From Candidatus Micrarchaeota archaeon (GTDB lineage Archaea > Micrarchaeota > Micrarchaeia > Anstonellales > Bilamarchaeaceae), in NCBI GenBank assembly GCA_964588555.1, contig CAZPPT010000006.1, positions 12,092-76,091 of the forward strand: a stretch of DNA of 64,000 nt, given 5' to 3'. The position numbers and the translations under genes are program-made. A model generated the notes under the pieces. That model did not search any database and was not told where the DNA came from. It saw only the letters and a program-made list of their open reading frames with translations. Below are positions 8,591-42,221 of this stretch, one piece after another. Numbering within the stretch: the stretch's first letter is position 1; the number at the start of each line of letters is the position of its first letter.

Positions 8591-8668
8591 AACGAGTACT
8601 CGCCACTACTAATTAAATATATTTCTGTTACTATTTCTATTGTTTCATAAGCAATTAGCTTATGCCAT

Positions 8669-9032: not shown

Positions 9033-9072
9033 TTTTGTTTTATTTTATATAAAATTATGTTTTATAAACTGT

Positions 9073-10600: not shown

Positions 10601-11008
10601 ATGCGCTTTGATGAAGAACTTAAAAAGAGGGTAGAGGGGGAGTCCTGGGAATACATCGCGCAGCTTGGCTCATTGTTCGTGATCGAGTTCGATACGGATA
10701 CCAAGGTTACACGAAAGCTAAAAAAAGAGCTTTCAGTCATAAAACACATCATTTGCGGGCACCTTAACAACGGCGGCGCCGAGCGTTTCATCACGCCGGC
10801 CCTCTTCGTACGCCTTGTGCAGGCGATACTTAAGTTTGAAAAAGATTTTGAGAAACATAATATACGCAGGAAGGAATTCCTTGTGTTCCTCCGGGCTCTT
10901 TTACATAAGCTCAAAAAGGAAAAATTGCATGCAAGTAAGCCGCTTGAGCGGGAGATGACGTTTAAGAAAATGAAAGATATTATGGAGAATGGTAATGGAC
11001 ATCTATAA
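10601..11008 (+). CDS. Hypothetical protein
   Basis: 135-aa ORF co-directional with the downstream pgi-like gene. The competing minus-strand ORF looks compositionally poor. Confidence 0.35.
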   Translation: MRFDEELKKRVEGESWEYIAQLGSLFVIEFDTDTKVTRKLKKELSVIKHIICGHLNNGGAERFITPALFVRLVQAILKFEKDFEKHNIRRKEFLVFLRALLHKLKKEKLHASKPLEREMTFKKMKDIMENGNGHL

Positions 11009-11699: not shown

Positions 11700-11781
11700 G
11701 GGGGCATATGCGATTTTATCTAAGCGTCTTGCGCCAGTACATTTCACTTGACCATGAAATCACAAAAGCAGATAGACCGAC

Positions 11782-11802
11782 GGCGTTTGTGCCGTTTCGG
11801 AA
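11782..11802. repeat. 20-bp direct repeat GGC(G)TTTGTGCCGTTTCGGAA (copy 1) flanking the hicBA cassette
   Basis: An exact 17-bp core TTTGTGCCGTTTCGGAA recurs at 12327-12346. The core contains the palindrome CCGTTTCGG. Confidence 0.5.
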
Positions 11803-11846
11803 AAATTGACCTAAAACCATATGCTTAAATTTCTTCATAGGCATAA

Positions 11847-12083
11847 TTGTATGGTGAACACATGAAGAAAAGTTTTCATATTGTCTTAGAAAAGCAGGAT
11901 GAAGGTGGCTACACCGTATACGTACCAGAACTTCCTGGTTGCATTTCACAAGGAGAAACAGAAAAAGAGGCGCTTGAAAACATTAAAGAAGCTACTGAAC
12001 TCTATTTAGAAGAACTAAATGCATCCCAAATGGAAAATACTTTAAAGCGAATTAAAGTTATCGAACCTCATGCAAGCTTGTGA
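11847..12083 (+). CDS. hicB: HicB-family antitoxin (UPF0150)
   Basis: HIVLEKQDEGGYTVYVPELPGCISQGETEKEALENIKEA, the canonical HicB N-terminal domain. Confidence 0.7.
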   Translation: MYGEHMKKSFHIVLEKQDEGGYTVYVPELPGCISQGETEKEALENIKEATELYLEELNASQMENTLKRIKVIEPHASL

Positions 12084-12303
12084 TTTTATGAAACTTCCAA
12101 CAGATGTCAGTGGTTGGGAGCTTGCAAAGATCGCAGTGCGTTTAGGTTTTGAAATACGTCGCCAAAAAGGAAGTCACCTTATTCTGAAAAAAGGAGAAAA
12201 ACTGCTTGTTATTCCTCAGCATAAAACCTTAAAGAAGGGTACCCTTTTACAAATTCTAAAAACAATGGAACTATCAAGAGAAGACCTTGAAAAGTTGCTT
12301 TAA
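12070..12303 (+). CDS. hicA: HicA-family mRNA interferase toxin
   Basis: GWELAKIAVRLGFEIRRQKGSHLIL...VIPQHKTLKKGTLLQILK, the YcfA/HicA fold motif. Overlaps hicB by 14 nt. Confidence 0.7.
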   Translation: MQACDFMKLPTDVSGWELAKIAVRLGFEIRRQKGSHLILKKGEKLLVIPQHKTLKKGTLLQILKTMELSREDLEKLL

Positions 12304-12326
12304 TCTGCTTTCAGATTCAGTTAACC

Positions 12327-12346
12327 GGCTTTGTGCCGTTTCGGAA
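12327..12346. repeat. 20-bp direct repeat (copy 2) flanking the hicBA cassette
   Basis: Same as 11782-11802. Itself flanked by the CAGTTAAC inverted repeat. Confidence 0.5.
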
Positions 12347-12506
12347 CAGTTAACTTTCCTTCTTTTCCTCAATGAATCATTTCCATAGTTTTTTATAGAC
12401 TATGCGCTTGCCTTCTATCCTTTCTTCCCCTTCAATATCCTTGGTAATAATGGGCAACTCGTTTTTGCTTCCGTTTTGTAACTATATCGTTTTTTCAGAA
12501 AACTAT

Positions 12507-18583: not shown

Positions 18584-18900
18584 AAAGCAAACCTATATAT
18601 AGTGGGAAATTCATAATAATTGTAGTTATGATTTGAATAGGTGTAAAAATATGGAACGGGGTTTACTTCATAGAGCAGGATTTACTTCATACGGCTTGAT
18701 TCAAAAGGCCGGCTAGTTCTACCACTTGCGATACGTGAGGCACTCGGCATCCCAACCAACGGGTCTGTTTTGATTAAGATAATTGCGAGCGATAGCTCGT
18801 CCGTTACGCTTTCTCTTTCAAAACCGACAGAGGGCGACAGTGCTAATTCTATTCCATTTTCAAAGAATGGGAAATACCTACGGGGGGATCGATATGATCG

Positions 18901-20208
18901 GTGAATTACTTCATCAATATGACGTATGGAAGATTACAAGATATTGACATTGCACGATTCAAGAATCGCGCGGCTATCTCAAATGAGGTAAAGGAGCGCG
19001 TGCGCCAAATTGTTGAAAACGTACGCACCCGCGGAATAGATGCGGTTTTGGAATATACAGAACAGTTCGACAGGATTCGGCTTGATTCAAAGACAATTCG
19101 GGTGACTCGAACGGAAATCGGTAGTGCGTACAAAAAAATAACAAACAACGAACTAGAAGTAATCAAAGAATCAATTAAACGAGTGCGCGCGTTTCACTTA
19201 GGACAGAAAAAAGCGATCCAAAACATAGATTTTGAGACTCAAGACGGGATAACCTCTCTTCGTTGGCTTCCGATTCCACGCATTGGGGTCTATGCGCCGG
19301 CTGGAAAAGCACCGCTTCCATCCTCAGTTATAATGGCAGCGATTCCCGCGCAAATTGCCGGAGTTAAGGAGATTATTCTGTGCTCCCCTCCACAAAAGAA
19401 CGGCGAGATCGACCCTTCAATTTTAGTAGCTGCAAACGAATGCGGGATTACTGAAATCTATAAAATGGGCGGAGCGCAGGCAATTGGAGCGCTTGCATAC
19501 GGATGCGGGCTATTTGACGGCGTTGATCTTATTGCCGGCCCAGGGAACGTATATACTGCTTACGCAAAGGATTTTGTGGCGAGTGAAGGGCTTGTAAAAA
19601 CTGATACGCGCGCAGGGCCAAGCGAAGTAGTGGTCATAGCAGATGAGACGGCAAATCCTTCGTTTGTTGCAACTGACATGCTCGCACAGGCTGAGCACGG
19701 TGCAAACTCTTCGGCGATTTGTATCGCTACCTCAAATCCTGTTGCGGAAATGGTACTTGCGGAGCTTAATGAGGGGATTTCACTCATGCCAAAAGCAGAC
19801 GGCATAATACAATCGCTTAAGCAATATGGGGCCATTCTTGTTGCACAAGATACTGAAGAAGCAATCTCATTTGTTAATTCATTTGCACCCGAGCACGTAG
19901 AGGTTTATACGAAGGACGCAGAAGAAATCGCGCCGCTCATAGCAAATGCAGGCGCAGTGTTCATCCAAACGAGCGAAGTATTCGGAGACTACGGCATGAC
20001 AGGAAGCAACCACATCCTGCCCACCGGCAGTGCCGCGCGTTTTAGCTCAGGCGTGAGCGTTTACACGTTCATGAAGTACCAGCTTGTAGAGAAAATGAGT
20101 CAAAGTGCACAGCAAGCGCTTGCTCCAAAGACCGCTCTTTTTGCGCGCCTCGAACAGCTTGAGGCACACGCAAACGCCGCAGAGATGCGAGGTAATCAAA
20201 ATGTTTGA
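18901..20208 (+). CDS. hisD: Histidinol dehydrogenase
   Basis: 435 aa with characteristic ...QAEHGANS... and C-terminal HisD motifs. First gene of the his operon. Confidence 0.9.
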   Translation: MNYFINMTYGRLQDIDIARFKNRAAISNEVKERVRQIVENVRTRGIDAVLEYTEQFDRIRLDSKTIRVTRTEIGSAYKKITNNELEVIKESIKRVRAFHLGQKKAIQNIDFETQDGITSLRWLPIPRIGVYAPAGKAPLPSSVIMAAIPAQIAGVKEIILCSPPQKNGEIDPSILVAANECGITEIYKMGGAQAIGALAYGCGLFDGVDLIAGPGNVYTAYAKDFVASEGLVKTDTRAGPSEVVVIADETANPSFVATDMLAQAEHGANSSAICIATSNPVAEMVLAELNEGISLMPKADGIIQSLKQYGAILVAQDTEEAISFVNSFAPEHVEVYTKDAEEIAPLIANAGAVFIQTSEVFGDYGMTGSNHILPTGSAARFSSGVSVYTFMKYQLVEKMSQSAQQALAPKTALFARLEQLEAHANAAEMRGNQNV

Positions 20209-21877
20209 TATTGAAACTATTGCAAAAAAATCAGTTCGATTGATGGCACCGTACGAGACGCCACCACTACGCGAGGCCGAAGCCAAACTGAATCAGAACG
20301 AGTCCCCACTTGACATTCCAGGGGAACTAAAAATAAAAATTGCAAAATCAATTCGCACCACCCCACTTAATCGCTATTTTGATGGGGGTTCGCTCCAGTT
20401 GTGCGAAGCGATTGCAAGGAAATACGGCGTTCGTGCAGAAAACGTTATTGTAGGCGCAGGAATCGACGAACTTCTTTATTATTTAGTGCTTGCCTTTGTC
20501 GAGCCTGGAGACCGCATCGTCCGTCCGGTACCAAGTTTTTCTATGTACGAGATTTGTGCAAGGGTCTCGAATGCAATCGACACGCCCATTATGCTTGATG
20601 AGTCGTTTGAACTTAATGGGGAATTTGTCGCTGCGGCAACGAATGCAAAAATCACGTTCATATGCACGCCGAATAATCCAACCGGTAATTCAATAGACAG
20701 AGCACGGATAAAAGAAATCCTCACCACCACGAGCGGCATTGTATGTATCGATGAAGCATATGCTGAATTTGCGAAGGAAAACTGCCTTGGTCTTCTTTCG
20801 TACCCAAACGTCATAATTATGCGCACCTTTTCAAAGCTCTATTCAGGCGCAGCACTTCGTCTTGGCTATGCGGTCGCAGATGCAAGAATTATCGAGTATA
20901 TGAACCGTGTGCGGCTTCCGTGGAACATAAGCGCCGTTTCGCAGGCCGCAGGCGAGATACTCATCCAAAACGATCGATTATTTGAACAACGGAAAAAAAG
21001 AATACTGAAAAACCGCGACCAGCTTCTAAAAGATCTTCAAAAAATTGTGTCCGTATATCCTACTGATTCGAACTTCATCCTCTTTAAGGTTGACAATTCA
21101 AAGAAGATTTTTGATACGCTGCTTGAGCGAGGCGTCCTTGTACGTGATGTAAGCAATGCGCCTGGCTTGAAGGGCTGCCTTCGGGTAACTGTTGGGACTG
21201 CAAATGAAAACAAGAAATTCATTTCCCTTTTGCGCGCCGTTCTTTCAAACCAAAAACCGGATGCACTCATTTTTGATATCGACGGCGTGCTTGTTGACGT
21301 TTCTCAATCGTATCGCGAGGCGATCAAGCGCACGGTTGAGAAAGAGACTGGCAGAATGCCGACTGACGGGGAAATCGAAGCGGTGAAGCAGAAGCCATTC
21401 TCTAATAACGATTGGGCCGTCACGTATGCACTTGCAACCGGATTCAAGGGCGACCTTTCTACGATTGACCGTACAAGCGCGTTATTCATCAAATTAAGAA
21501 ATAATTTTCAATCTGCGTATCGCCTGTTTCGGGATAAAGAACCGCTTCTTATAGAACGTGCGCTCATCTCTGAGTTTCAGAAACGAGCTATTAAAATTGG
21601 TTTTGTCACTTCCCGCCCCCGGACTGAGGCGTTGTATGCATTAGGGCGGATCGGCGGCGTTGACCCGGATTTCGTTGTTGCGCAGGAGGATTGCGATGAG
21701 GAAAAACCATCGCCAAAACCGATCCAGGCGCTCCTTCTGCGCATGCAGGCCAAGAATCCGTTGTATATCGGAGATACGATTAATGATAAACTCGCAGCAG
21801 AGCGTGCACGCATATCATACGAACCAGTCGATGCAACACAAAATGTAAACGATATTTTACGGAGGTTATTGAAATGA
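20201..21877 (+). CDS. hisC: Histidinol-phosphate aminotransferase fused to a C-terminal HAD-superfamily phosphatase domain (putative histidinol-phosphatase)
   Basis: Aminotransferase class I/II core (...TPNNPTGN..., SKLYSGAALRLGY). C-terminal HAD motif I IFDIDGVLVD and motif IV IGDTINDKLAA. The start is taken at MFDIET, overlapping the hisD stop. Confidence 0.85.
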   Translation: MFDIETIAKKSVRLMAPYETPPLREAEAKLNQNESPLDIPGELKIKIAKSIRTTPLNRYFDGGSLQLCEAIARKYGVRAENVIVGAGIDELLYYLVLAFVEPGDRIVRPVPSFSMYEICARVSNAIDTPIMLDESFELNGEFVAAATNAKITFICTPNNPTGNSIDRARIKEILTTTSGIVCIDEAYAEFAKENCLGLLSYPNVIIMRTFSKLYSGAALRLGYAVADARIIEYMNRVRLPWNISAVSQAAGEILIQNDRLFEQRKKRILKNRDQLLKDLQKIVSVYPTDSNFILFKVDNSKKIFDTLLERGVLVRDVSNAPGLKGCLRVTVGTANENKKFISLLRAVLSNQKPDALIFDIDGVLVDVSQSYREAIKRTVEKETGRMPTDGEIEAVKQKPFSNNDWAVTYALATGFKGDLSTIDRTSALFIKLRNNFQSAYRLFRDKEPLLIERALISEFQKRAIKIGFVTSRPRTEALYALGRIGGVDPDFVVAQEDCDEEKPSPKPIQALLLRMQAKNPLYIGDTINDKLAAERARISYEPVDATQNVNDILRRLLK

Positions 21878-22458
21878 GGGTTGGAGAGGTAAAACGAAAA
21901 ACAAACGAAACAGACGTCACTGTGCAAGTTGGTCTTGATGGCACCGGTAATTCCAAGATTGCAACTGGCATCGGATTTCTTGATCACATACTTACGCTTT
22001 TTTCAAGGCACAGCCTCATCGACCTCACCCTAACTGCAAGAGGGGATCTAGAAGTTGATGACCACCACACGGTAGAAGACATTGGTATTTGTATGGGTCA
22101 AGCACTAGCGCAAGCACTCGGTGAAAAGCGGGGAATAAGCCGTTACGGCTTTTTCATCCTCCCCATGGATGAGTCGCTTGCGCAGGCTGCAGTTGATTTT
22201 TCTGGAAGGCCATACCTTGTGTTTGATGCACGGTTCGATCGTGAGATGGTGGGTGATCTTTCCACAGAACTTGTACGCGAGTTCTTCTATGCAGTAAGTG
22301 TGAATGCAAAAATGAACATCAACATGCGCGTGACTGGCGAGAACACGCACCACAAAATCGAGGCGCTCTTCAAGGCGTTTGCACGTGCTGTGCGCACGGC
22401 CGTTGCAATTGACGGGCGGGCAAAAGATGAAATTCCAAGTACAAAAGGAGTGATTTAG
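21874..22458 (+). CDS. hisB: Imidazoleglycerol-phosphate dehydratase
   Basis: DHHTVEDIGI and HH...E metal-site motifs. Confidence 0.9.
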   Translation: MRVGEVKRKTNETDVTVQVGLDGTGNSKIATGIGFLDHILTLFSRHSLIDLTLTARGDLEVDDHHTVEDIGICMGQALAQALGEKRGISRYGFFILPMDESLAQAAVDFSGRPYLVFDARFDREMVGDLSTELVREFFYAVSVNAKMNINMRVTGENTHHKIEALFKAFARAVRTAVAIDGRAKDEIPSTKGVI

Positions 22459-23274
22459 ATGGACCAAATACGTTTGGCAATACCAAATAAAGGAAGATTA
22501 TACCAAAAGACGCTTGAACTGCTTGAACGGGCAGGTATACGGGTGCCTGAGAACGGCCGGAAGCTCTACGTGCGCACAAATATCGAAGATATTGTTGTCA
22601 TCTTTGCGCGTGCGCAGGATATTCCGTGGTATGTCGCGACAGGCGCAGCCGACATCGGCATCTCGGGAGAAGACATGATGAGGGAGAGTGGCGCGACCGT
22701 TGAGCGACTCCTTAAGCTTAACTTTGGAAGCTGCACTATTGCGCTTGCGAGTAAGGATGGGAAAAAAGCTCGTATTGCAACAAAGCTCCCGAATATCGCG
22801 CGTAGTGCGTTTCCGGACTCAGTTATTGTCCCCATGAGCGGTGCTTGTGAGCTTGCCCCGCAGCTTGGCATTGCTGATGCAATAGTTGACCAGGTAAGTA
22901 GCGGGGATACGCTTAAGGCAAATAATCTTAAAATCGACCAGGTGCTCTTTGAGTCAAACATATACCTTATTGGCAATGCGAGGAGTATGAAAGATAAGAG
23001 AGTTGAAGAACTCACGCTTGGTTTTGAGGGAGTGCTTACTGCAGAAGAGAAGCGCTATATTATGTTTAATGTAACGAGCAAGCGCGACCTTGCAGAGGCA
23101 GTTAAGGTGACCCCCGCAATGGAAAGCCCGACCGTACTTAAGCTTGCAAAGAAGGGCGCCTATTCGATACACTCAGTTATTGATGTAGCGGAGCTTATGC
23201 CTGCGCTTTTACGTATAAAGAAGGCTGGTGGGAAGGATATTTTAGTACTGGATATGTCGAGGGTGGTTGATTAG
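22459..23274 (+). CDS. hisG: ATP phosphoribosyltransferase (long form)
   Basis: MDQIRLAIPNKGRL N-terminus. Contains a C-terminal regulatory domain. Confidence 0.9.
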   Translation: MDQIRLAIPNKGRLYQKTLELLERAGIRVPENGRKLYVRTNIEDIVVIFARAQDIPWYVATGAADIGISGEDMMRESGATVERLLKLNFGSCTIALASKDGKKARIATKLPNIARSAFPDSVIVPMSGACELAPQLGIADAIVDQVSSGDTLKANNLKIDQVLFESNIYLIGNARSMKDKRVEELTLGFEGVLTAEEKRYIMFNVTSKRDLAEAVKVTPAMESPTVLKLAKKGAYSIHSVIDVAELMPALLRIKKAGGKDILVLDMSRVVD

Positions 23275-23872
23275 CATGATTGCAATTGTTGATATGGGAA
23301 ACCGCGTAAATGTAAAAAATGCGTTTGCAAGAATTGGTGCTCAGGTAGCCGTTACCCGCAAGAAGAGCGTACTAAAAACTGCTGACGCAATCGTACTTCC
23401 GGGCGTTGGGGCATTTGGTGCTGGCATGAAACGGTTGGAACGAAAGCGAACCATTCTTGCTGATCTTGTTGACGGAGGTACCCCTTTTCTTGGCATTTGT
23501 TTAGGCATGCAGCTTCTTTTCGAGACGAGCGAAGAAAGTAGTGGCGTGCGCGGTCTAGGGATTCTAAAAGGAAGTGTACGACGATTGAGCGCTTCAGCCA
23601 ATTTGATTGTTCCGCACATGGGCTGGAATAAGGTGGAAAATACACGAGGCCCGCTTTTCGATGGTATGGATAATTTTTACGCATATTTTGTGCACTCGTA
23701 TTACGGTGTACCAAAAGACAGCTCAGTAGTTGCGGGGACTACGCGCTATGGTACTCTTTTTCCATCAGCCCTTGCCGGAAAAAACCTCTTTGCAACCCAA
23801 TTTCACCCTGAAAAAAGCGGTAAAACCGGCATTGTAATTCTTAGAAATTTTATTCAAGAGGTGAAACGATGA
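23267..23872 (+). CDS. hisH: Imidazole glycerol phosphate synthase, glutaminase subunit
   Basis: Class I GATase: GVGAFG, catalytic Cys in GICLGMQ, and HPEKS. Confidence 0.9.
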   Translation: MISMIAIVDMGNRVNVKNAFARIGAQVAVTRKKSVLKTADAIVLPGVGAFGAGMKRLERKRTILADLVDGGTPFLGICLGMQLLFETSEESSGVRGLGILKGSVRRLSASANLIVPHMGWNKVENTRGPLFDGMDNFYAYFVHSYYGVPKDSSVVAGTTRYGTLFPSALAGKNLFATQFHPEKSGKTGIVILRNFIQEVKR

Positions 23873-24573
23873 AAATCATCCCTGCAATTGACCTACTCAA
23901 TGGAAAATGTGTACGTCTTGTTCGTGGAGAAGAGCGAAGCGCAGTTGTGTATGATAAAGACCCGCTTGTACTTGCGAATGAATATATGGAGAGAGGCGCG
24001 CGCCGTATACACGTCATAGATCTTGACGGCGCCTTTACCGGCACTATGAAAAATATGGAAATAATCCGTGAACTCGCAGCGCGTTTTCCTTTACAGGTAG
24101 GGGGAGGAATACGTACAGAAAAGACGCTCGGTGAGCTTCTTGAAGCAGGTGTACAAAAAGTAATCCTTAGCACACTTCTCCTTAGAGATAAGGATGCTGC
24201 TACTGATATAAAGAGGCGCTATGATGACCGAATTATCGGATCATTTGATTTTAGCAATGGTGCACTAAAATACGCAGGATGGACAAAAGAGTCCGCCTCT
24301 CAACTTGCGGATGTTGTGCGCGGGCTAAGCGAGATTATTGTAACTGATATCGAACGAGACGGTACACTTACCGGGCCGAATATCAGGCTCTTGGAATCAA
24401 TAAAGCGGCGCACTGATGCAGTGATTATTGCAGCAGGAGGCATCCGGGACGTCTGGGACCTCTATGACCTAAAGCGCATCGGCATGGGCGGTGCAATTAT
24501 TGGCAAGGCTTTTCTGGAAAATCGGCTTGCGCCCGATGAATCATTTAGGTTTGAGCAATTTGGGGGTGAGTAA
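23869..24573 (+). CDS. hisA: ProFAR isomerase
   Basis: KIIPAIDLLNGKCVRLVRG and GGGIR motifs. Confidence 0.9.
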   Translation: MKIIPAIDLLNGKCVRLVRGEERSAVVYDKDPLVLANEYMERGARRIHVIDLDGAFTGTMKNMEIIRELAARFPLQVGGGIRTEKTLGELLEAGVQKVILSTLLLRDKDAATDIKRRYDDRIIGSFDFSNGALKYAGWTKESASQLADVVRGLSEIIVTDIERDGTLTGPNIRLLESIKRRTDAVIIAAGGIRDVWDLYDLKRIGMGGAIIGKAFLENRLAPDESFRFEQFGGE

Positions 24574-24574
24574 T

Positions 24575-25333
24575 ATGCTATGTAGGAGAATCATTCCATG
24601 TCTGGATGTAAAAAACGGGCGTGTCGTAAAGGGTACGAACTTTATGAATCTACAAGATGCCGGCGACCCGGTAGCGCTTGCTCGTTACTACTACGGGAAA
24701 GGAGCTGACGAGCTTATATTTCTTGACATTAGTGCAAGTATTGAGAAGAGGGCCACAATTGTCGAGCTTGCACAGCGCGTTTCAGAAGAAGTTTTCATCC
24801 CATTTACGATTGGGGGCGGAATCAGCTCAATAAATGACATGGAAAAGGCGCTCAAAGCAGGTGCTGACAAGGTTGCACTTAATACTGCCGCACTTAGGAA
24901 TCCGCGGCTTATCCGCGATGCCGCCTGGGAATTTGGCACACAAGCAATTGTCGTTGCAATCGATGCAAAAAAAGAAAATGGGGCGTGGCACGTATACTCT
25001 TATGGCGGGAAGGAAAAAACAAATCTTGATGCTATTGGATGGGCGAAAGAGGTAGCTGAGCTTGGCGCAGGTGAATTATTAATAACGAGCATTGACCGCG
25101 ACGGCACGAAAAAAGGCTTTGATATTGTTCTTCTTGCACAAATGGCAAAAGAAGTATCTATCCCCGTAATTGCTTCAGGCGGTGCAGGCGAAAAAGGCGA
25201 TTTTCTTGACGTCTTTACCAAAACGCGTGTAACGGGAGCGCTTGCCGCAAGCGCCTTCCACTACAAAAAATTATCAATTACAAAACTAAAGCGCTACCTG
25301 GCGCAAAAGGGAGTGTTAGTCCGTGAAAATTAA
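24575..25333 (+). CDS. hisF: Imidazole glycerol phosphate synthase, cyclase subunit
   Basis: LCRRIIPCLDVKNGRVVKG...GADKVALNTAA...IASGGAG. The start is taken at the internal ATG at 24575. Confidence 0.9.
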   Translation: MLCRRIIPCLDVKNGRVVKGTNFMNLQDAGDPVALARYYYGKGADELIFLDISASIEKRATIVELAQRVSEEVFIPFTIGGGISSINDMEKALKAGADKVALNTAALRNPRLIRDAAWEFGTQAIVVAIDAKKENGAWHVYSYGGKEKTNLDAIGWAKEVAELGAGELLITSIDRDGTKKGFDIVLLAQMAKEVSIPVIASGGAGEKGDFLDVFTKTRVTGALAASAFHYKKLSITKLKRYLAQKGVLVREN

Positions 25334-25892
25334 GTATGGTTCCGATGGCTTGATTCCATTCATTGCCCAGGATGCACTTACAGGCGCAGTCCTATCGCTC
25401 TTCTACGCAAATGAAGAGGCAATAACGAGGATGAACGAAACTGGATTCGTATGGCGCTATTCAAGAAGTAAGAAGCGCCTTATGCAAAAGGGGGAAGAAA
25501 GCGGCAACACGATGAAGGTCGTTTCAATGGCGTATGATTGCGATTCTGATGCGTTACTTGTACAGGTTGAAGTAAAGGGGCCTGCCTGCCACACCGGAAC
25601 GAAGTCCTGCTTTGGCGACATTTCTGCAAACATGCTTGAAAAACTTGCAATTGTTATCCGTGACAGGAAACTAAATCCAAAAAAAGATTCGTATACATCG
25701 AGTATTGTAAATGACCGAGATAAAATTGTAGAAAAGCTTCGTGAGGAGTGCGAAGAACTCATTGATGCAAAGGAAAAGGACGCAATCAGGTGGGAGGCCG
25801 CTGACCTTCTTTACTTTATGCTCCTGTACCTTGAGAATTGCGAGGTGTCATTTGAAGCGGCGCTCACTGAGCTTAAGAGAAGAAGAAAATGA
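25323..25892 (+). CDS. hisIE: Bifunctional phosphoribosyl-AMP cyclohydrolase / phosphoribosyl-ATP pyrophosphatase
   Basis: HisI core (GLIPFIAQD...CHTG) followed by a HisE helical domain (EELIDAKEKDAIRWEAADLLYFM). Confidence 0.85.
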   Translation: MKIKYGSDGLIPFIAQDALTGAVLSLFYANEEAITRMNETGFVWRYSRSKKRLMQKGEESGNTMKVVSMAYDCDSDALLVQVEVKGPACHTGTKSCFGDISANMLEKLAIVIRDRKLNPKKDSYTSSIVNDRDKIVEKLREECEELIDAKEKDAIRWEAADLLYFMLLYLENCEVSFEAALTELKRRRK

Positions 25893-26067
25893 TACCTTGT
25901 TAAAGGTTTGATGAAAATGATATTGTAAATTTCGATAAAAAAGGCGGCAAAAATGCTTGGAATGCTCTATAAATTTATCGAATTACTAAATGATAGGAAG
26001 ACCAACTATATCTATATGGCTGAAGAAAAAATTGAAGCAGAAGCAAAAGCTGCAAAAGAGGTATGAT

Positions 26068-27297
26068 ATGAAACTCGCCCCAAAAGGAATGAGGGATATC
26101 CTTCCGGAAGACGCACTTCTTCGTGAAGACGTCATTGCCACGTTCAAAAGCGTATTCAGGCTCTACGGCTTTGTGCCGCTCGAAACGCCTGCACTTGAAT
26201 ACCTCGCAACGCTTCGTGCAAAGGGAGGGGAGGAAATCGACAAGCAGATATTTGTGCTTGATGACAAGGAACTTGGATTACGGTTCGATCATACCGTGCC
26301 ATTGTCACGGGTTGCGGCAAACAATGCATTCACCAAGCCGTTCAAGCGCTATGTCATTGGCCCGGTGTGGCGAAAGGAAGAACCGCAAAAAGGGCGCTTT
26401 CGGGAATTTTATCAGGCAGATGTCGACACGGTCGGTACTAAAAATATGCGCGCCGAGGCAGAGGTACTTGCCGTTGCGCGCACCGTTGCAGTGAAGCTTG
26501 GGTTTGACTCGCCGCGCATTCTTATCAACAATAGGAAAATCCTCGATGCACTTGCACTGGAGCTCGATGTCCAAAGTAAAAAAGAGGCGATTTTTCGATT
26601 ACTTGACAAGATCGACAAGGTCGGAGAAGACAAAGTAAGGCAGGAAATGAGCGCAGTCATCGGAGAGGAAAAAACAAAGCGCTTATTTGAGATCTTTGAT
26701 ACGCGGGGCGATAATAAAAAGAAGCTCGCAGTTGCAAGAAAAATAAGCGAGGAAGGGGCACGAGAACTTGAGGAAATAATCTCATTATCCGAGTTTCCCA
26801 TCGAGGTTGATTTAGCGCTTGTTCGCGGATTAGGCTATTATACCGGCCCGGTATTTGAGATAAAGGCAAGTGATACCATTGGAAGCATTGCCGGCGGTGG
26901 GAGATATGACAATTTACTTTCTGTTTATGGCCAGGCAGATTATGCGGTTGGGATCAGTTTTGGCATTGAGCGCATCATCACACTTTTAAAAGATCGTGAG
27001 GCGTCAGCTAGAAAAACAATCACGCGCGTATTTGTTGCGTGTGTAAAACCAGAATTCTACCAGGAAGCAGTCAAAATCGCAGACGAATTTCGCAGAAACG
27101 GGATTCCGGCAGAAGCCGACCTAAATGAGCGCAACCTGCGAAAGCAATTGGAATATGTCAATTCGCTTGGGATTCCGTACCTGGTCGTGGTAGGGGGGCG
27201 GGAGGTTAAGGAGAATACATTTGTGCTTCGAGACATGCTTACGGGAAAAGAGGAGAAGCTCGCGCGTGCAGGGCTTATAAACCGCTTACGCGATTAG
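26068..27297 (+). CDS. hisS: Histidyl-tRNA synthetase
   Basis: MKLAPKGMRDILPED N-terminus. Class II motifs and a C-terminal anticodon-binding domain. The ORF extends upstream to 25990 but is Lys-rich junk there. Confidence 0.9.
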   Translation: MKLAPKGMRDILPEDALLREDVIATFKSVFRLYGFVPLETPALEYLATLRAKGGEEIDKQIFVLDDKELGLRFDHTVPLSRVAANNAFTKPFKRYVIGPVWRKEEPQKGRFREFYQADVDTVGTKNMRAEAEVLAVARTVAVKLGFDSPRILINNRKILDALALELDVQSKKEAIFRLLDKIDKVGEDKVRQEMSAVIGEEKTKRLFEIFDTRGDNKKKLAVARKISEEGARELEEIISLSEFPIEVDLALVRGLGYYTGPVFEIKASDTIGSIAGGGRYDNLLSVYGQADYAVGISFGIERIITLLKDREASARKTITRVFVACVKPEFYQEAVKIADEFRRNGIPAEADLNERNLRKQLEYVNSLGIPYLVVVGGREVKENTFVLRDMLTGKEEKLARAGLINRLRD

Positions 27298-27352
27298 TCT
27301 ATCCTACAACGATCCTGGACGGGCTCATTTTTGCCGAGGCGGTCGATCCTCA

Positions 27353-28678: not shown

Positions 28679-30001
28679 ATGGTTGTAGGAAAAATCCGTG
28701 AAAACATCTATCCGATTACGCTTGCGGCAGTTGCGCTTCTTTTTATCGTCTTACTTTTCTCCATAGTGCGAACCGCGCTCTTTGGGGAGGTGGACCTCCA
28801 CAAGTACGCATTCTTTGAGATCAGCCTCCTTTTGCTCATTGCGGTCATTGCGGAAATCGGCGTCATCCATTCCAAGCAGCCAAGCGCGATACTCCTCCTT
28901 CTTGTCGGTGTGCTTATGAGCGAAAGCGTGCTTGGATTTCATATCTTCAAGGACGAGCACCTAATCCAGCTTTTTGCCCAGCTTGGTGCAATATTTTTAC
29001 TCTTTAAGGTCGGCCTTCATTCAAGCTTTAAGAGTATCTTTTCAAGAGAGAACGCACTTGTCGCGATCCTTGGCATCGTTGTCCCGTTTGTCGGGGGCTT
29101 TGGGTATGCGACGCTTACGGGAGGAAATTTTGTCTATGCGATGTTTCTTGGCGCCGCGCTTACCGCCACAAGCGTCGGGGTTACGGTTTCGATACTTAAG
29201 GAAAAAAAGCTCATGAATGAAAAATTTGCAGAAGTGATTATTGGCGCAGCAATCATTGACGACGTACTTGGCTTACTTGTATTGTCATTTGTGCTTAATG
29301 TTCCGGCAGGATATGAACTACCGCAGATCATCGATCTTTTTACAAGCGTTTTTACGGTCGGTATTACGGATGAATTCCTTGCATTTGCAATGCCGCTTGG
29401 GAGAGTTGTCCTTATTACGGCACTCTTTTTACTTGGCGGGATAATCGCGGGCCAATGGTTCGTGTCCCGTGTTCTTGATCGCCTTGAGATCGGCACGACC
29501 ATATTTCTTATTGCAATTGCATTTTTGCATTTCTATTCGTACATCGCAGAAGTAATCGGCCTCTCAGCAATTGTCGGCGCATTTATTGCAGGGCTACTTC
29601 TTACAAAAAGCAGGCACATTAAGGACCTTGAGGAAAAGGTGTATGCACTTGAAACGATGTTTGTGCCAATTTTCTTTATCTCACTTGGGCTACTTGTCAA
29701 TGTGCATGATGTTGCAGAGTTCTTTATCCCCATTGTTGTCATTAGCATTATCGCAATACTTACCAAGGTGCTTGCATGCAGCGGAGGCGCGCTTGCAACC
29801 AAAATAAAACCCATCGAATCAGCGATCATCGGCTTTGGCATGGCGCCGCGCGGAGAGGTTGCGCTTATCGTTGCCTCAATTGGTTTAACCCGCGGAGCGC
29901 TTGCCCCGCCAGAGTATGCCGTCATTACTGCCGTTGCGCTCATCACGACGATACTCCCGCCGTTTGTCATGAATTCCCTGATTGCGAAGGTGAAACAATG
30001 A
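28679..30001 (+). CDS. Monovalent cation:proton antiporter (CPA2/Kef-type)
   Basis: 12-13 TM helices with the Na_H_exchanger pattern (IGAAIIDDVLGLLVLSFV). Confidence 0.75.
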   Translation: MVVGKIRENIYPITLAAVALLFIVLLFSIVRTALFGEVDLHKYAFFEISLLLLIAVIAEIGVIHSKQPSAILLLLVGVLMSESVLGFHIFKDEHLIQLFAQLGAIFLLFKVGLHSSFKSIFSRENALVAILGIVVPFVGGFGYATLTGGNFVYAMFLGAALTATSVGVTVSILKEKKLMNEKFAEVIIGAAIIDDVLGLLVLSFVLNVPAGYELPQIIDLFTSVFTVGITDEFLAFAMPLGRVVLITALFLLGGIIAGQWFVSRVLDRLEIGTTIFLIAIAFLHFYSYIAEVIGLSAIVGAFIAGLLLTKSRHIKDLEEKVYALETMFVPIFFISLGLLVNVHDVAEFFIPIVVISIIAILTKVLACSGGALATKIKPIESAIIGFGMAPRGEVALIVASIGLTRGALAPPEYAVITAVALITTILPPFVMNSLIAKVKQ

Positions 30002-30513
30002 TCCGTGCCAAATACCTGATCCTTAAGGACAAACAGTTCTTTGAACTGCAAGATGGCTCGCTTCGCCTTTTAGGTCCCGCCGTTGAGATTGCTAAACACC
30101 TCAAAAAGGAAGGGTTTGAATTACTCCATATCATTGATCATGACGCAGAACGCGGGGTGGAAACGAATTTTGATGTGTACGACAAGCTTACCTATATTAT
30201 TAACGTTGAGGTAGAATGCGAGAAGGTCCATTTCATTAAGCGATTGATCGCACTTAATGTGAGGGTCGTCGTTTCATTACCAAGCGCGATCAACTTAACC
30301 GAATTTAAGGATAAAAAAAGACTGCTCGTCGGGAAAATAAGGGATTCGAATTTTGATGGTTCCATCGGAGACGTGCATGATATCATTGTTGAACGCGCGA
30401 GTTCGAGTTTCGATCTAATTAAAAAATATGAAAAACTTGGAAAACGGGTTATTATTTACAAAAGGGATTTTGAAAAGAAGATGGAACCATTTGTGTTTGG
30501 GGTTATTGATTAA
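29998..30513 (+). CDS. HisA/HisF-like (beta/alpha)-barrel paralogue with degenerate catalytic positions
   Basis: KYLILKDKQFFELQDG...ELLHIIDHDAERG...VRVVVSLPSA parallels the HisA sequence AIDLKDGKCVRL...WLHLVDLDGA...VQVGGGIR. The catalytic Asp and the GGGIR loop are not conserved. The ATG overlaps the antiporter stop. Confidence 0.4.
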   Translation: MIRAKYLILKDKQFFELQDGSLRLLGPAVEIAKHLKKEGFELLHIIDHDAERGVETNFDVYDKLTYIINVEVECEKVHFIKRLIALNVRVVVSLPSAINLTEFKDKKRLLVGKIRDSNFDGSIGDVHDIIVERASSSFDLIKKYEKLGKRVIIYKRDFEKKMEPFVFGVID

Positions 30514-30919
30514 ACGTTTCAGGTCCTTCCCCATCAAAGTAAATCCCGAACTGCGCCATGGCTTTTGCCAACTCACGGCAGGATGTACGCCCCAAATTTT
30601 TGATCTTAAGTATCTCATGTCTTGTTTTATCGGTAAGCCCTTCAGCAGTAATCCCTTCACACGCTAGCGCTTCTGTCAGTCTTGTTCTTATTGGTTTTTG
30701 TGGTACGTTGGCAATAATCTGGGCGAGTGTTGGGCCTGTGCGTACCGTCGTACCCTGACTTATTACGGATTCCAATTTACTAAGTTCGCCTTCGTGCTGT
30801 CCGCGTACTGCCGCTATTAAAACTTTTTTAACTTCTTTATCCTTGATTCTATCGATAAGTGCACGTAATTTCCCGTGTTTTCTTTCATCTTCACTTGTTC
30901 GGGTATATGTAAATGCCAT
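30503..30919 (-). CDS. Stand-alone RNA polymerase alpha-subunit C-terminal-domain-like (HhH) protein
   Basis: TRLTEALACEGITAEGLTDKTRHEILKIKNLGRTSCRELAKAMAQFGIYF matches the alpha-CTD pattern RSANCLKxxGIxTxGDLxxxTEEELLKIxNxGKKSLxEIxxxLxxxGL. Confidence 0.5.
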   Translation of the reverse strand: MAFTYTRTSEDERKHGKLRALIDRIKDKEVKKVLIAAVRGQHEGELSKLESVISQGTTVRTGPTLAQIIANVPQKPIRTRLTEALACEGITAEGLTDKTRHEILKIKNLGRTSCRELAKAMAQFGIYFDGEGPETFNQ

Positions 30920-31008
30920 ATATTTCTACTATTAGTAACTATTTAAAAAACTTGCTAAAAAAGGAAAAATTTGTTTTATTGTCAAAGAGCCAAAATCGCC
31001 ATCTAGAC

Positions 31009-31707
31009 CTATTTTGTCTTTGAATACACGACAAACCCGTTCTTTGTAATCTCCGCAGGATAGATTTTCGAAGAATGCGCCGCCCCTTTCATCTTTATTA
31101 TCTCAATCGCACGGGTCCGTTCGCGTTCCTTTGGCGAAAACAAGTAATAAATGTGGATCCATCCGTCAGTAAAGCTCTCAATGCCGTATCGTGTCGCAGG
31201 AAGCACGTCCTGTGTCGTAGCGGGCACGTCCTCAGATATGATGAGCGTTGTCGTTTGCCATTTGCGTATGTTCTCCATAAGCTTAATGAACCCCTTTTTG
31301 CGCTCGTCATCATTGTTAAAGAAGAGCGCCACCGGCATGACGGAGTCGATTACCACGCGCCGTACCCCTATCCGGTTGATAAGTTCCTGTATTGCACTGT
31401 TCTGTGCAAGAAATTGGTCAACCTCAAGTACGGGGTAATCAAGGAAAAGAAGCTTCTTATTCTTCTCCAACTTGTCAAGTTCCCATGAATAGCTTGACAT
31501 GTGGAAGTATACTGAGGAATGGGTTTCCTCTATTGCAATATAAAGGCCTGGTTCTTTTGATTCAAGGATGCCATTGACAAGAAACTGCATTGCAAGGGTG
31601 CTCTTGCCTGCACCGGTCGGCCCAGTGACTGCGATTACTGAATTCTTAAGAAGCCCGCCCCCAAGGACTCCGTCAAGGCCTGGAACGCCGCTTTTTATCT
31701 TTTCCAT
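31009..31707 (-). CDS. KaiC/RadA-like single-domain RecA-superfamily ATPase
   Basis: GVPGLDGVLGGGLLKNSVIAVTGPTGAGKSTLAMQF (Walker A) plus a Walker B and KaiC-like fold. The start is taken at MEKIKSG. Confidence 0.7.
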   Translation of the reverse strand: MEKIKSGVPGLDGVLGGGLLKNSVIAVTGPTGAGKSTLAMQFLVNGILESKEPGLYIAIEETHSSVYFHMSSYSWELDKLEKNKKLLFLDYPVLEVDQFLAQNSAIQELINRIGVRRVVIDSVMPVALFFNNDDERKKGFIKLMENIRKWQTTTLIISEDVPATTQDVLPATRYGIESFTDGWIHIYYLFSPKERERTRAIEIIKMKGAAHSSKIYPAEITKNGFVVYSKTK

Positions 31708-31711
31708 CGGT

Positions 31712-32197
31712 TCACCCTTCTTTTTTCTCAAGCAGTTTTTTGCCCATTGCCGCACGGTCCTGGACATACCGGTTGAATTGTTCACGCTCCTCCTTTGTCG
31801 AAACCCGTTCTGTGATGTACTTTTTTATACTAAACCAGTTTGCCGCCATGTTTACAAGAAGGGCATGTGCCTTGTCAAGGCTTAACCGTATCTCGTTTGG
31901 CTTCTGGATTTCAACAGTAAGCGGGTTGAATAATGCGCAGATGTTAAGGAGCGCCTCAAAGTCCCGTGTCAGTACCTTTACTTCGATTGTTGTTGAAAAC
32001 TTGCCCTCGTGTTCGATCGGTTCCTCGATTTCGCCATAGGCGGTTACCACGCCGTCCTGCTTGAGGATCGAGTCGACAAACGATGTCGCAAGGTGTTTTA
32101 CTTTATCGCTTTCGTTTGCATGGAGGTCAAAGTAAAGTATAGTAAGTACCCCCCCTTTTTGTACGGTGTCCTTTGTCAGCTTTTCTATGTCTGTCAT
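31712..32197 (-). CDS. Hypothetical protein, operonic with the KaiC-like ATPase
   Basis: 161-aa ORF immediately upstream and co-directional. Confidence 0.45.
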   Translation of the reverse strand: MTDIEKLTKDTVQKGGVLTILYFDLHANESDKVKHLATSFVDSILKQDGVVTAYGEIEEPIEHEGKFSTTIEVKVLTRDFEALLNICALFNPLTVEIQKPNEIRLSLDKAHALLVNMAANWFSIKKYITERVSTKEEREQFNRYVQDRAAMGKKLLEKKEG

Positions 32198-37570: not shown

Positions 37571-38965
37571 ATGGTTCGTCAAGTTCAGTCCCCTAGTGTT
37601 CGACAGGTCGTCAATCCAAAAATACAGGGAACGTTGCAATCACCTTTTGAAAGAGATCCCCTTATTGGCAAAGTCGTTTGTGGGCAGTTTGCCCTTGAAA
37701 AGAAGGTCTCAGGAGGTGGGATGGCAAATGTCTATGTTGCGCGCAACCGTACCTTGGGCACTCATCTTGCAGTTAAGGTTTTGAGGGAAGACTTGCCTGA
37801 TGCGTATGCACCTGATCGACTTAAGCTCGAGGCTGCGGTAATGGCAACAATACACCATCCCAACGTCGTACGGATTTTTGACCACGGGGAAGTGGAAGGT
37901 TTACCCTACATCGCCATGGAATATCTGTACGGAGGTTCGCTTGCAGACATGAGGCAGGATCGAATAACTGCACAAAATTCTGGCCCTTACTTATCATTAA
38001 GCGAGTCTATTGAAATTATCTTGCAAATATGCCAGGCTATAATACCACTCCATAGGCTTGGCCTTATCCATCGTGATTTGAAACCTGCAAATATTCTCCT
38101 TGATATAAGCCCAGGCGTGGAAAAACCGATAATAAAGGTATGTGATTTTGGACTTGTTGCACGCCATGATATGTATGAAGTATCGGCTGCACTTTTACCC
38201 TTGGTCACTTCAGTTGGTGACCTTACCCCCCCAGGTGCAAGCGCCGGTACCCCTTCTGCCATGGCACCCGAACAATTTATGGGAACACATTCATTTACTA
38301 CTGACGTTTATGCCGTATGCGCCATGCTTTATGAATTCGTATCTGGAAAGCGGCCGTACGGTAACCCCGCCCCCGATACTACTGTCACGGAATGGTATGC
38401 GCTTAAAAACAAGCCCGTGCGGCCACTACGTGAAGCAAACCCTGAAGTTACGGTGCACCCTCTTCTTGAATCAATTGTCATGCGTGGCCTTGCTATTGAG
38501 CCTGCAGACCGCTTTCAGACAATTTCAGAATTGCACGATGCGCTTCTTGGGGTTCAATCAGCCATACGCAGCCCGGCTCACTCACCCTCGATTCAGGTCC
38601 CTGCTTCCGCACCATCCCTTCAACTGCGAAGTTCACTGTGGCAGTATACACGGTATGTTGCGATCGGGGCGCTTCTTTCAGCTGGGGCAGCATTTCTTTC
38701 ATTTTCACAGGGCACTCAGTCGATTCCGGTTACGCCGACTCCTGCGCCTGTGGCGACATCGTCGGTCATGATCGACTGCAATCCTATCGGCGCACAAGTC
38801 TTTGATGAAACAGGCATGCTTCTTGGCACCACGCCTTTGGAGATTAATCCAACCCTTTTAAAATCGTCTTTTATAACTATTAAAGCAGCTGGGCATACCA
38901 AAAAGTCAATTGTTATCTCCAAACAATCTAATGGCTTTATATATGTTGATCTATCTAAAGAATAA
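37571..38965 (+). CDS. Hanks-type Ser/Thr protein kinase with TM segment and C-terminal PEGA domain
   Basis: GGGMANVYVAR...AVKVL (subdomains I/II), HRDLKPANILL (VIb), DFGL (VII), then a TM helix and a PEGA-like VMIDCNPIGAQVFDETGMLLGTTPLE. Confidence 0.8.
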   Translation: MVRQVQSPSVRQVVNPKIQGTLQSPFERDPLIGKVVCGQFALEKKVSGGGMANVYVARNRTLGTHLAVKVLREDLPDAYAPDRLKLEAAVMATIHHPNVVRIFDHGEVEGLPYIAMEYLYGGSLADMRQDRITAQNSGPYLSLSESIEIILQICQAIIPLHRLGLIHRDLKPANILLDISPGVEKPIIKVCDFGLVARHDMYEVSAALLPLVTSVGDLTPPGASAGTPSAMAPEQFMGTHSFTTDVYAVCAMLYEFVSGKRPYGNPAPDTTVTEWYALKNKPVRPLREANPEVTVHPLLESIVMRGLAIEPADRFQTISELHDALLGVQSAIRSPAHSPSIQVPASAPSLQLRSSLWQYTRYVAIGALLSAGAAFLSFSQGTQSIPVTPTPAPVATSSVMIDCNPIGAQVFDETGMLLGTTPLEINPTLLKSSFITIKAAGHTKKSIVISKQSNGFIYVDLSKE

Positions 38966-39019: not shown

Positions 39020-40396
39020 ATGCAAATTCAGACTGAGGCTTTTTGTCGAAATACTACGCGACTCCGCTCGCCACGGGTACGCAACCCATTTAGCGGCGTT
39101 TCGCCAGCACCGGATACAAGCCTTATTGGTCAGCGCATAGAATACTTTCGTATTGTTGAACTGGTTGCCGAAGGGGGTATGGGTGCAGTTTACCGTGCAC
39201 AGCACATAAAACTTGGCTACGACGTCGCAATAAAAGTCCTTCACGCATCTCTTGTAACTGACCCGGTGATGATACGGCGTTTTCGGCGTGAGGCAGAACT
39301 ATTAAGTAGCATGAACGACCCCCATATCGTACGGGTTCGTGAATATGGATTTTACCATGATCTTCCTTATATTATTATGGATTATCTTGCAGGGCAAACT
39401 CTCGATGAAGTACTACGTGCCCAGACTCATATACATTCGGATCGTGCCGTATCAATTTTGCTTCAGATATGTGCTGCCATCGCGCCGCTTCATGCACGCG
39501 GCATCATTCACCGTGACCTTAAACCATCCAATATCATACTCCAAAACGGTGACGCAGTGAAACTTTTTGATCTTGGCGTAGCGCGAGAGATCACTGCATC
39601 AGAACCGCCCATGCCATCGGTAGCATGTTTTGTAACCGGCATGACCCCTCACGGCAATATCATTGGTACGCCTTCCTATATGCCGCCCGAACAATTCAAG
39701 GGATTATATAATTTCGAAAACGACATTTATTCGTGGGGGGTAATTGCATATCAAATGCTCGCTGGCGTTCTACCGTACGTATGCGACCGGATCGACATAT
39801 ACTCAGTTGCAAAGCAGGTCCCACCAGTACGCCTTCGTGAGCGTGTGCCGAGCGTCCCTCCCGTGCTTGAATCAATCGTCATGCGCGCCCTTGACCCCGA
39901 CCCAACACGTAGGTTTCAAACTGCAGGCGAGCTTTATGCCTGCCTTGCTGAATTTCAGTCAGGAAATGCTGCAGCACGTTCTGCCTTTCTAGACACTGCC
40001 AAGCAGGCTATGCATACACTACGCGTTAAGCACCCAGCTATCGGCAGCTTTGTTTCCATTTCACTTATCTCGGCAGCTGCAACTGTTGCGGCTTTGTTTT
40101 CCTTACCTAGCAACATCGTATCCAACTCTGCAACGTATCAGCCATTACCTGTCCAGGCATCAACTTATCCTACAGTTATGGTCGACTGCAATCCTATTGG
40201 CGCACAAGTCTTTGATGAAACAGGCACGCTTCTTGGCACCACGCCTTTGGAGATCTCATTTGGTCCTGATATGAATTTGCGCGACGTGACAATCAGGGCA
40301 GATGGCTATAAAGAGCGCCAGGTTACCCTCTCCACTGAAGGGCAGGTTGTTTCGGTTGTGCTTGAGCGGCCGTTGGTGCTTCTTGCAGGTGAATAA
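39020..40396 (+). CDS. Hanks-type Ser/Thr protein kinase, tandem paralogue, with PEGA domain
   Basis: GGMGAVYRAQH...AIKVL, HRDLKPSNIIL, DLGV, and C-terminal VMVDCNPIGAQVFDETGTLLGTTPLE. Confidence 0.8.
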   Translation: MQIQTEAFCRNTTRLRSPRVRNPFSGVSPAPDTSLIGQRIEYFRIVELVAEGGMGAVYRAQHIKLGYDVAIKVLHASLVTDPVMIRRFRREAELLSSMNDPHIVRVREYGFYHDLPYIIMDYLAGQTLDEVLRAQTHIHSDRAVSILLQICAAIAPLHARGIIHRDLKPSNIILQNGDAVKLFDLGVAREITASEPPMPSVACFVTGMTPHGNIIGTPSYMPPEQFKGLYNFENDIYSWGVIAYQMLAGVLPYVCDRIDIYSVAKQVPPVRLRERVPSVPPVLESIVMRALDPDPTRRFQTAGELYACLAEFQSGNAAARSAFLDTAKQAMHTLRVKHPAIGSFVSISLISAAATVAALFSLPSNIVSNSATYQPLPVQASTYPTVMVDCNPIGAQVFDETGTLLGTTPLEISFGPDMNLRDVTIRADGYKERQVTLSTEGQVVSVVLERPLVLLAGE

Positions 40397-42100: not shown

Positions 42101-42221
42101 GCGACTGTAGTCTAGCAAACTTTTTGGAAAAGTTTGATCAAAACACTTCCTTCAAGTTTGGGCGTTGGTAGGATTCGAGATTGCCAATCTCGTGACCCGG
42201 GTTCGAACCCCGGCGGTCGCA
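42101..42221 (+). tRNA. tRNA-Gly(GCC) with a ~48-nt D-loop intron
   Basis: GCGACTG TA GTCT AGC[intron 42117-42164]TTGGTA GGAT T CGAGA TTGCCAA TCTCG TGAC CCGGG TTCGAAC CCCGG CGGTCGC A. Confidence 0.75.

Follow-up and report, generated by a model that had tools for sequence, protein, structure and literature searches.

Does a domain that belongs to bacterial RNA polymerase occur, free of the polymerase, in an archaeon? This question is raised by a gene on the minus strand of a 64,000-nucleotide stretch of a Candidatus Micrarchaeota genome (assembly GCA_964588555.1, contig CAZPPT010000006.1, positions 12,092 to 76,091), the whole of which is called the window below. The gene encodes a protein of 138 amino acids (aa). 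An annotation made earlier from the sequence alone (the first-pass annotation) described it as a stand-alone helix-hairpin-helix (HhH) protein resembling the C-terminal domain of the RNA polymerase alpha subunit RpoA (alpha-CTD). To our knowledge, alpha-CTD counts as a defining feature of RNA polymerases in bacteria and plastids, with no counterpart in the archaeal enzyme. Our analysis reveals that the C-terminal half of the protein is a genuine domain of the bacterial RpoA alpha-CTD type; the match is beyond chance and is not one to a generic HhH fold. As to the protein as a whole, we hold with slightly better than even confidence that it is a free two-domain DNA-binding, regulatory or adaptor protein with an alpha-CTD fold, derived from bacteria or phages and captured by a narrow lineage of Micrarchaeota. 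The gene and its parts are listed here.

30503..30919, minus strand: gene for the 138-aa two-domain protein (N-terminal domain, linker, alpha-CTD-like domain), taken from the list of open reading frames, with ATG start
30752..30919, minus strand: N-terminal helical domain, approximately residues 1-56 (AlphaFold2 model, hidden Markov model, conserved motif)
30722..30751, minus strand: predicted flexible Gly/Thr/Pro-rich linker, approximately residues 57-66, SQGTTVRTGPT region (low model confidence, alignment gaps)
30506..30721, minus strand: alpha-CTD-like (HhH)2 domain, residues 67-138 (Pfam, NCBIfam, phmmer, family profile, hhalign, AlphaFold2 models)
30554-30682, minus strand: match to Pfam PF03118, residues 80-122 (positions 23-66 of the 67 in the model)

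The open reading frame (ORF) had been placed correctly, and its 138-aa translation is exact, including the C-terminal string TRLTEALACEGITAEGLTDKTRHEILKIKNLGRTSCRELAKAMAQFGIYF. Two plus-strand ORFs that overlap it (30428-30667 and 30558-30758) are short shadow ORFs. GC content of the gene is 0.432, compared with 0.464 for the window, and at third codon positions (GC3) it is 0.345, about two standard deviations below the value for window genes longer than 150 aa (0.477±0.065). Exact-sequence look-up retrieved no database record for the protein.

Identity of the C-terminal domain was examined by sequence profiles and by structural models. Pfam search reported RNA_pol_A_CTD (PF03118) with E=3.7e-5 and 23.8 bits, a score that equals the gathering score of 23.8 and is thus significant, although borderline. 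No other Pfam family of the HhH clan was reported for the protein, even at E<=10. NCBIfam rpoA equivalogs were matched through their C-termini only (best E=2.1e-5), with scores of 12-24 bits that fall far short of the cut-offs of 228-523 (for example 23.6 vs 277). When PDB sequences were searched by phmmer, RpoA accounted for 23 of the 27 matches, the top one being Bacillus subtilis alpha-CTD (1z3e_B, E=0.009). The borderline Pfam score is reinforced by two further comparisons. A profile built from the four members of the protein family described below retrieved about 50 distinct RpoA sequences from PDB, with a best E of 5e-6; no HhH family other than RpoA was among its matches. Aligned by hhalign with 90 modules, taken from proteins that strongly match PF03118, together with Escherichia coli alpha-CTD, the C-domain of the family gave a probability of 98.9% and E=3.4e-17 over 62 columns.

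Structural modelling is in agreement with these results. The AlphaFold2 model of the window protein has a mean predicted local distance difference test score (pLDDT) of 67.5, with 76-85 in the C-domain, and fits onto alpha-CTD of E. coli and B. subtilis (1lb2, 3n4m, 1z3e) with a root mean square deviation of 0.9-1.3 Å over 50 residues. In a structural search with this model, the top 40 or so PDB matches are all RpoA; XPF (rank 45, probability 0.16) and DisA (ranks 43 and 50) come no higher than rank 43 and have E>=0.41 and probabilities of 0.16-0.60. Foldseek E-values for the window model are above 1e-3, which we put down to the shortness of the domain. The independent model of a homologue, P0013, is more confident (C-domain pLDDT 86-95), and all of its top 50 structural matches are RpoA, with a target-normalised TM-score of up to 0.78. 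Generic HhH families of repair and recombination proteins (HHH_5, XPF/ERCC1, RuvA domain II, RadA/Rad51 N-terminal domain) fit less well than alpha-CTD, and none of them is found among the matches of the P0013 model. The first-pass annotation had proposed a Pfam search and structural modelling as checks; the profile does match, the fold is that of alpha-CTD and not that of a repair-type HhH protein, and family profile, hhalign and both models agree on this, so that the alpha-CTD-like assignment stands.

The protein also proved to be stand-alone, as had been claimed. No RNA_pol_L or RNA_pol_A_bac match was detected, residues 1-72 contain no Pfam domain, and the N-terminal domain through which RpoA dimerises and assembles (alpha-NTD) is thus absent. 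It follows that the protein is not an RNA polymerase subunit. Instead of alpha-NTD, it carries an N-terminal domain with the conserved motif E-R-[RK]-x3-L-R-x-[LI]-[IV]-[DN] ... R ... L-x-K-[LI]-E. AlphaFold2 predicts helices at residues 9-14, 16-24, 28-38 and 43-56 of this domain (pLDDT 57-63 in the window protein, 61-74 in the P0013 model). Between the two domains, pLDDT drops below 50 at residues 54-61, and the family alignment has gaps there, as the length of the linker varies. No relative of the N-domain was found in Pfam or PDB, and to judge from its sequence the domain is novel and previously undescribed. In a set of 72 sequences, matches to a hidden Markov model of the N-domain are confined to the N-termini of P0005 (residues 3-47) and P0023 (residues 6-51), both at E of about 9e-6 and 17.8 bits, the next match being at E=0.63. 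P0005 contains three alpha-CTD modules and P0023 two; the window protein therefore shares with these multi-module proteins the architecture of an N-domain followed by one or more alpha-CTD modules.

Two other assignments of the N-domain were considered and rejected. The motif P-x3-R-x-V-F-x-L suggested a degenerate helix-turn-helix (HTH) of the sigma region 4 or LuxR type, yet no Pfam HTH family was matched at E<=10 by six isolated N-domains, and in hhalign the probability of a match to region 4 of the sigma-like protein from the window itself was 0.2%. A PDB match of the N-domain profile to a uteroglobin fusion was marginal (E=0.009), split into sub-threshold pieces and was judged to be due to chance.

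To compare functional residues, E. coli alpha-CTD was aligned with the four family members, and the residue correspondences given in this text are those of this alignment. R265, N268, G296, K298 and S299 make up the DNA-binding "265 determinant", and D258, D259 and E261 the acidic 261 determinant. In E. coli, N268 and K298 are required for binding of UP elements, and the acidic 261 determinant touches region 4 of sigma-70. Equivalents of R265 (R80), G296 (G110) and S299 (S113) are invariant across the family. N268 is replaced by E83 in the window copy and is Asn in the other three members; K298 is replaced by T112, and Lys is found at this position in P0016 only. The acidic 261 determinant is absent: D258, D259 and E261 correspond to P73, Q74 and P76 in the window protein and to basic residues in the homologues. 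The window protein thus shares with RpoA alpha-CTD its fold, 27-34% sequence identity, the layout of motifs, the position of the head after a flexible linker and the R265, G296 and S299 equivalents, whereas it differs by lack of alpha-NTD, its archaeal host, Glu and Thr in place of N268 and K298, and lack of the acidic determinant.

We wondered how widespread such proteins are. A word-indexed search of 5.8 billion protein clusters returned the protein itself only. Exhaustive HMMER search of 1.84 billion representatives yielded 37 matches, mostly proteins with 2-11 tandem modules; full-length matches were restricted to P0013 (131 aa) and P0016 (140 aa), and P0038 (135 aa) was added by profile search. 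The full-length family thus has four members among 5.8 billion clusters. Identity of the other three to the window protein is 34-37%, 22 columns of the alignment are invariant, and the MAFT start is common to the window protein and P0016. All four are basic, with isoelectric points (pI) of 9.4 for the window protein and 10.0-10.2 for the homologues, whose contigs are 570-1487 bp in length. The family profile found no relative in 185,579 representative GTDB genomes and none in IMG/VR contigs, and a scan of JGI metagenomes re-found only P0013, in a second copy. Among 83 retrieved loci (317 kb), no further alpha-CTD-like or sigma-like genes were present.

The closest sequence relatives outside the family are strong PF03118 proteins with 1-11 modules, known from metagenomes. 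P0002, P0003, P0005, P0023 and P0027 carry PF03118 modules without alpha-NTD, as the window protein does, and the subgroup of P0005 and P0023 also shares its ERRK..LR..ID N-terminal domain. They differ in having 2-11 modules or in lacking the N-domain. The extremes are P0002 (1031 aa, 11 modules, PF03118 E=5.8e-139) and P0027 (97 aa, a single module). The window protein scores far below the cut-off of NF005841/PRK07758, a 95-aa hypothetical protein (15.7 vs 115). It resembles small phage proteins annotated as "RNA polymerase, alpha subunit, C-terminal" (111-139 aa) in size class and in layout, with the alpha-CTD fold placed behind an N-terminal helical region. Proteins of uncultured Caudovirales (e.g. 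A0A6J5MNY7, 128 aa) and A0A2P1JY10 of Rhodococcus phage Finch are the top structural matches among viruses, with a best BFVD E-value of 7.2e-4; at the level of sequence, no tblastn match was found in 50,697 phage records and no PHROG was matched. Literature search returned nothing on free alpha-CTD-like proteins, archaeal alpha-CTD or the tandem-module class. The domain is known and free alpha-CTD-module proteins are already present in databases, while the archaeal host, the N-domain and the altered determinants are new.

Some members of the tandem-module class (P0002-P0037, all outside the window), which is sizeable and uncharacterised, have features of their own. P0002 and P0024 begin with a signal-peptide-like N-terminus, tandem modules of P0006 (1396 aa) are fused to a ResIII helicase domain, and the sequence of P0025 looks proteobacterial.

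Further, we examined the host and the genomic position of the gene. The window had been regarded as archaeal, and its content places it within Micrarchaeota (DPANN): neighbours include Nop5, a KaiC-like ATPase, HisRS, a Na/H exchanger, thermosome, eRF1, PurP domains, CTP-dependent riboflavin kinase and diphthamide synthase, and thermosome identity reaches 83% with Candidatus Micrarchaeota metagenome-assembled genomes (80% with a Ca. Bilamarchaeaceae one). The gene lies in a conserved block ordered as follows: (his operon), HisRS, further genes, Na/H exchanger, HisA/F-like gene, a variable slot, KaiC-like gene (minus strand), MJ0538 (minus strand), Nop5, metallophosphoesterase and GNAT. Features at the slot and its content in relatives are:

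29998-30513, plus strand: HisA/F-like gene, 171 aa, convergent neighbour; orthologues are common in Micrarchaeota
30503..30513, no strand assigned: 11-nt convergent 3'-3' overlap of the alpha-CTD-like gene with the HisA/F-like gene; also at 692-702 in L001 and 946-956 in L003
Slot in the window: alpha-CTD-like gene
Slot in loci L078, L079 and L080: M24 peptidase
Slot in locus L081: unrelated 250-aa ORF
Slot in locus L082: empty

A further locus, L083, has six unannotated plus-strand ORFs after its HisA/F-like gene and, as far as it was retrieved, no KaiC-like gene. Since the slot is empty or otherwise filled in relatives, the alpha-CTD-like gene is a lineage-specific insertion. All four family members adjoin the same convergent HisA/F-like gene on independent contigs; L003 and the window share 48% identity in this neighbour. 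The 11-nt overlap, with a CAATAA core, recurs unchanged in L001/L002 and L003/L077, and it has been kept although the proteins are only 35-48% identical. The same neighbour and identical overlap on independent contigs rule out an assembly chimera, and their sharing across the family indicates that the gene was inserted once, in the common ancestor of a narrow lineage of Micrarchaeota. Around the gene, a search for insertion scars and signatures of mobile elements found only short repeats at chance level and no Rfam element.

The HisA/F-like neighbour is itself a "half-barrel" (29998-30513; L078-L083). It has only weak His_biosynth similarity, is found downstream of HisRS and the Na/H exchanger across Micrarchaeota and is not the same gene as genuine hisA or hisF, both of which are present in the his operon nearby.

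On its upstream side, the gene is separated from the KaiC-like gene, encoded on the same strand, by a gap of 89 bp that contains two candidate signals:

30942..30947, minus strand: TATA-like box TTTAAA, putative archaeal promoter, 28 nt upstream of ATG
30957..30969, minus strand: oligo-T tract TTTTTCCTTTTTT following the KaiC-like stop codon, putative archaeal terminator
31009-31785, minus strand: KaiC-like ATPase, listed as 258 aa with GTG start

Oligo-dT tracts serve as termination signals in archaea, hence the putative role of the tract. Of 25 TTTAWA occurrences across the window, 9 fall in a peak at -30..-26 relative to start codons, and the orthologue in L001 is likewise preceded by TTTAAA, at about -29. 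From the oligo-T tract and the TTTAAA box, the gene is apparently transcribed alone; it appears to form its own transcription unit, read from an archaeal-type promoter into a leaderless or short-leader mRNA.

What may such a protein do? We picture it as a small, basic, free protein that would resemble a miniature tethered DNA reader, its alpha-CTD head being joined through a short flexible linker to a helical N-terminal domain of a novel kind. Its most likely origin is an uncharacterised bacterial or phage class of alpha-NTD-less proteins with one to many alpha-CTD modules. The gene was probably captured once, by the ancestor of the narrow Micrarchaeota lineage, came to lie with the HisA/F-like gene on one side and the KaiC-like/MJ0538 pair on the other, and would then have been given an archaeal TATA promoter. 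The head would bind the minor groove or the backbone of DNA through R80 (the R265 equivalent) and the G-x-x-S hairpin (G110, S113), and the N-domain would mediate self-association or docking to a partner. The outcome would be a small protein that works apart from polymerase, in a nucleoid-associated, regulatory or adaptor role. DNA binding, the role of the N-domain and the direction of transfer are thus what we infer. This account is consistent with the PF03118 proteins being closest sequence relatives, with the low GC3, with the pI range of 9.4-10.2 and with the invariance of the R265, G296 and S299 equivalents. Several points weigh against it. The Pfam score does no more than reach its threshold; models of the N-domain are of low confidence and any role given to it is a guess; donor and direction of transfer are deduced solely from the fact that alpha-CTD is otherwise bacterial; and replacement of N268 by Glu (E83) and of K298 by Thr makes DNA binding by the window copy uncertain, as judged from its residues.

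The last of these points leads to the alternative that survives best, although we consider it unlikely: a protein-protein adaptor without DNA binding, in which the alpha-CTD surface would bind another protein, as it does with Spx and CAP, and the N-domain would act as anchor. Alpha-CTD is a well-known hub of protein interactions, complexes with Spx (1z3e) and CAP (1lb2) are among the top structural matches, and the N268 and K298 replacements of the window copy fit this role. Based on the residue map, the N268E change leaves room for the possibility that the window copy may act mainly through protein contacts. Against this, three homologues keep Asn at N268, all four members keep the R265, G296 and S299 equivalents, and their strongly basic character is a better fit to binding of nucleic acids.

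A more ambitious proposal came from the first-pass annotation, which saw in the gene, together with a cluster of sigma-70-family genes, support for the idea of an imported bacterial-like toolkit of transcription initiation. The cluster does exist (2207-6748), with three paralogues recognised by profile matches:

2207-3178, minus strand: sigma-70-family paralogue
3228-4373, minus strand: sigma-70-family paralogue
4796-6748, plus strand: sigma-70-family paralogue

One of them, a 650-aa protein, contains regions 2, 3 and 4 and passes the cut-off of the TIGR02937 superfamily (77.7 vs 42.9). Both types of gene are bacterial-type within an archaeon, and sigma-70 homologues are widespread in DPANN without known partner or anti-sigma factor (Castelle et al. 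2021, PMC8204110). In this view, the alpha-CTD-like protein would cooperate with the sigma-70-family proteins of the genome, for example by touching region 4 and upstream DNA, much as alpha-CTD does at UP elements. No alpha-CTD-like family is mentioned in the text or in the examined supplementary files of that paper; the DPANN sigma homologues it reports are also a bacterial-type, transcription-related family present in the window, but a different and widespread one. The toolkit inference is unsupported by our results, and we regard it as improbable. The gene is located 24 kb from the sigma cluster, with no conserved linkage, in a distinct TATA-box transcription unit, and is a lineage-specific insertion in a variable slot. 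Its family of four contrasts with the widespread sigma homologues, and representative GTDB genomes contain no relative at all. The acidic 261 determinant, which would face region 4, is replaced by Pro, Gln and Pro or by basic residues, and no bacterial RNA polymerase core is present as a tether. The only basis of the idea is presence in the same genome. A hybrid variant, in which the free head, with its N-domain dimerised or docked, and the sigma-70-family proteins would read promoter-upstream DNA and recruit or modulate archaeal RNA polymerase, we consider very improbable; if true, bacterial promoter-recognition parts would be working on a eukaryote-like transcription machine.

The 650-aa sigma protein further has a C-terminal extension of about 300 aa without annotation, and a gene for a Rieske protein (4416-4784) is located among the sigma paralogues.

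The neighbouring KaiC-like ATPase, a RadA paralogue (31009-31785), suggests another function: the protein might serve in trans as HhH DNA-binding head of this ATPase, mimicking the N-terminal HhH domain of RadA/Rad51. The gene is directly downstream of this KaiC/RecA-superfamily ATPase on the same strand, at the distance of 89 bp, and alpha-CTD modules of relatives give weak RAD51D_N matches. However, relatives that lack the alpha-CTD-like gene still have the conserved KaiC-like/MJ0538 pair, which makes this role unlikely. Moreover, the ORF upstream of the gene in L001 and L003 is a different one on the opposite strand, the oligo-T tract and a separate TATA box stand between the two genes, and no RadA/Rad51 chain occurs among structural or sequence matches, so we give this alternative little credence. 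Finally, a generic repair-type HhH protein, or a spurious or decaying ORF with coincidental likeness to alpha-CTD, would suit the threshold-level Pfam score and the high Foldseek E-values of a short domain but is scarcely credible and effectively refuted by family profile, hhalign and the P0013 model, as independent lines converge on alpha-CTD alone, four orthologues at 34-37% identity keep length, both domains and motif residues, and start codon and promoter are conserved.

As for the two-domain protein, a conserved gene equipped with a promoter implies that alpha-CTD, a module for contacts with DNA and activators, can be detached, transferred and retained in a cell whose transcription is of the TBP/TFB type. 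It further draws attention to a large class of proteins, as yet uncharacterised, in which alpha-CTD modules occur free or in tandem (up to 11 of them), some with an undescribed N-terminal domain, and it adds one more bacterial-type, transcription-related protein in DPANN to the sigma-70 homologues already reported. Its extreme rarity limits the immediate impact.

Several other features of the window and of the loci compared with it deserve mention. The KaiC-like ATPase and the MJ0538-family protein (31009-32197, minus strand) form a pair; apart from L083, every Micrarchaeota contig examined keeps it next to Nop5. For the ATPase, the listed GTG start probably lies too far upstream, as the listed protein has 258 aa compared with 229-235 aa in orthologues. 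A set of histidine biosynthesis genes occupies approximately 18900-27300 (Pfam HisG, Histidinol_dh, IGPD, Aminotran_1_2, GATase/SNO, two His_biosynth and PRA-CH), and HisRS comes next, at 25990-27297. For a DPANN genome, such biosynthetic capacity is notable.

An Rfam tRNA match at 42162-42221 (plus strand, 60 nt, 32.8 bits) has a Gly-GCC-like anticodon loop and a poor acceptor stem. ARAGORN detects no tRNA anywhere in the window, and the match could represent an atypical, split or degenerate tRNA. Tandem paralogues of 458-464 aa with 38% mutual identity are encoded at 37571-38965 and 39020-40396 (plus strand). The window also contains two Pkinase and two T2SSF matches, not mapped to specific ORFs. 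In L082, the gene for DP2, the large subunit of DNA polymerase II (7726-12477), contains an intein carrying a LAGLIDADG endonuclease domain.

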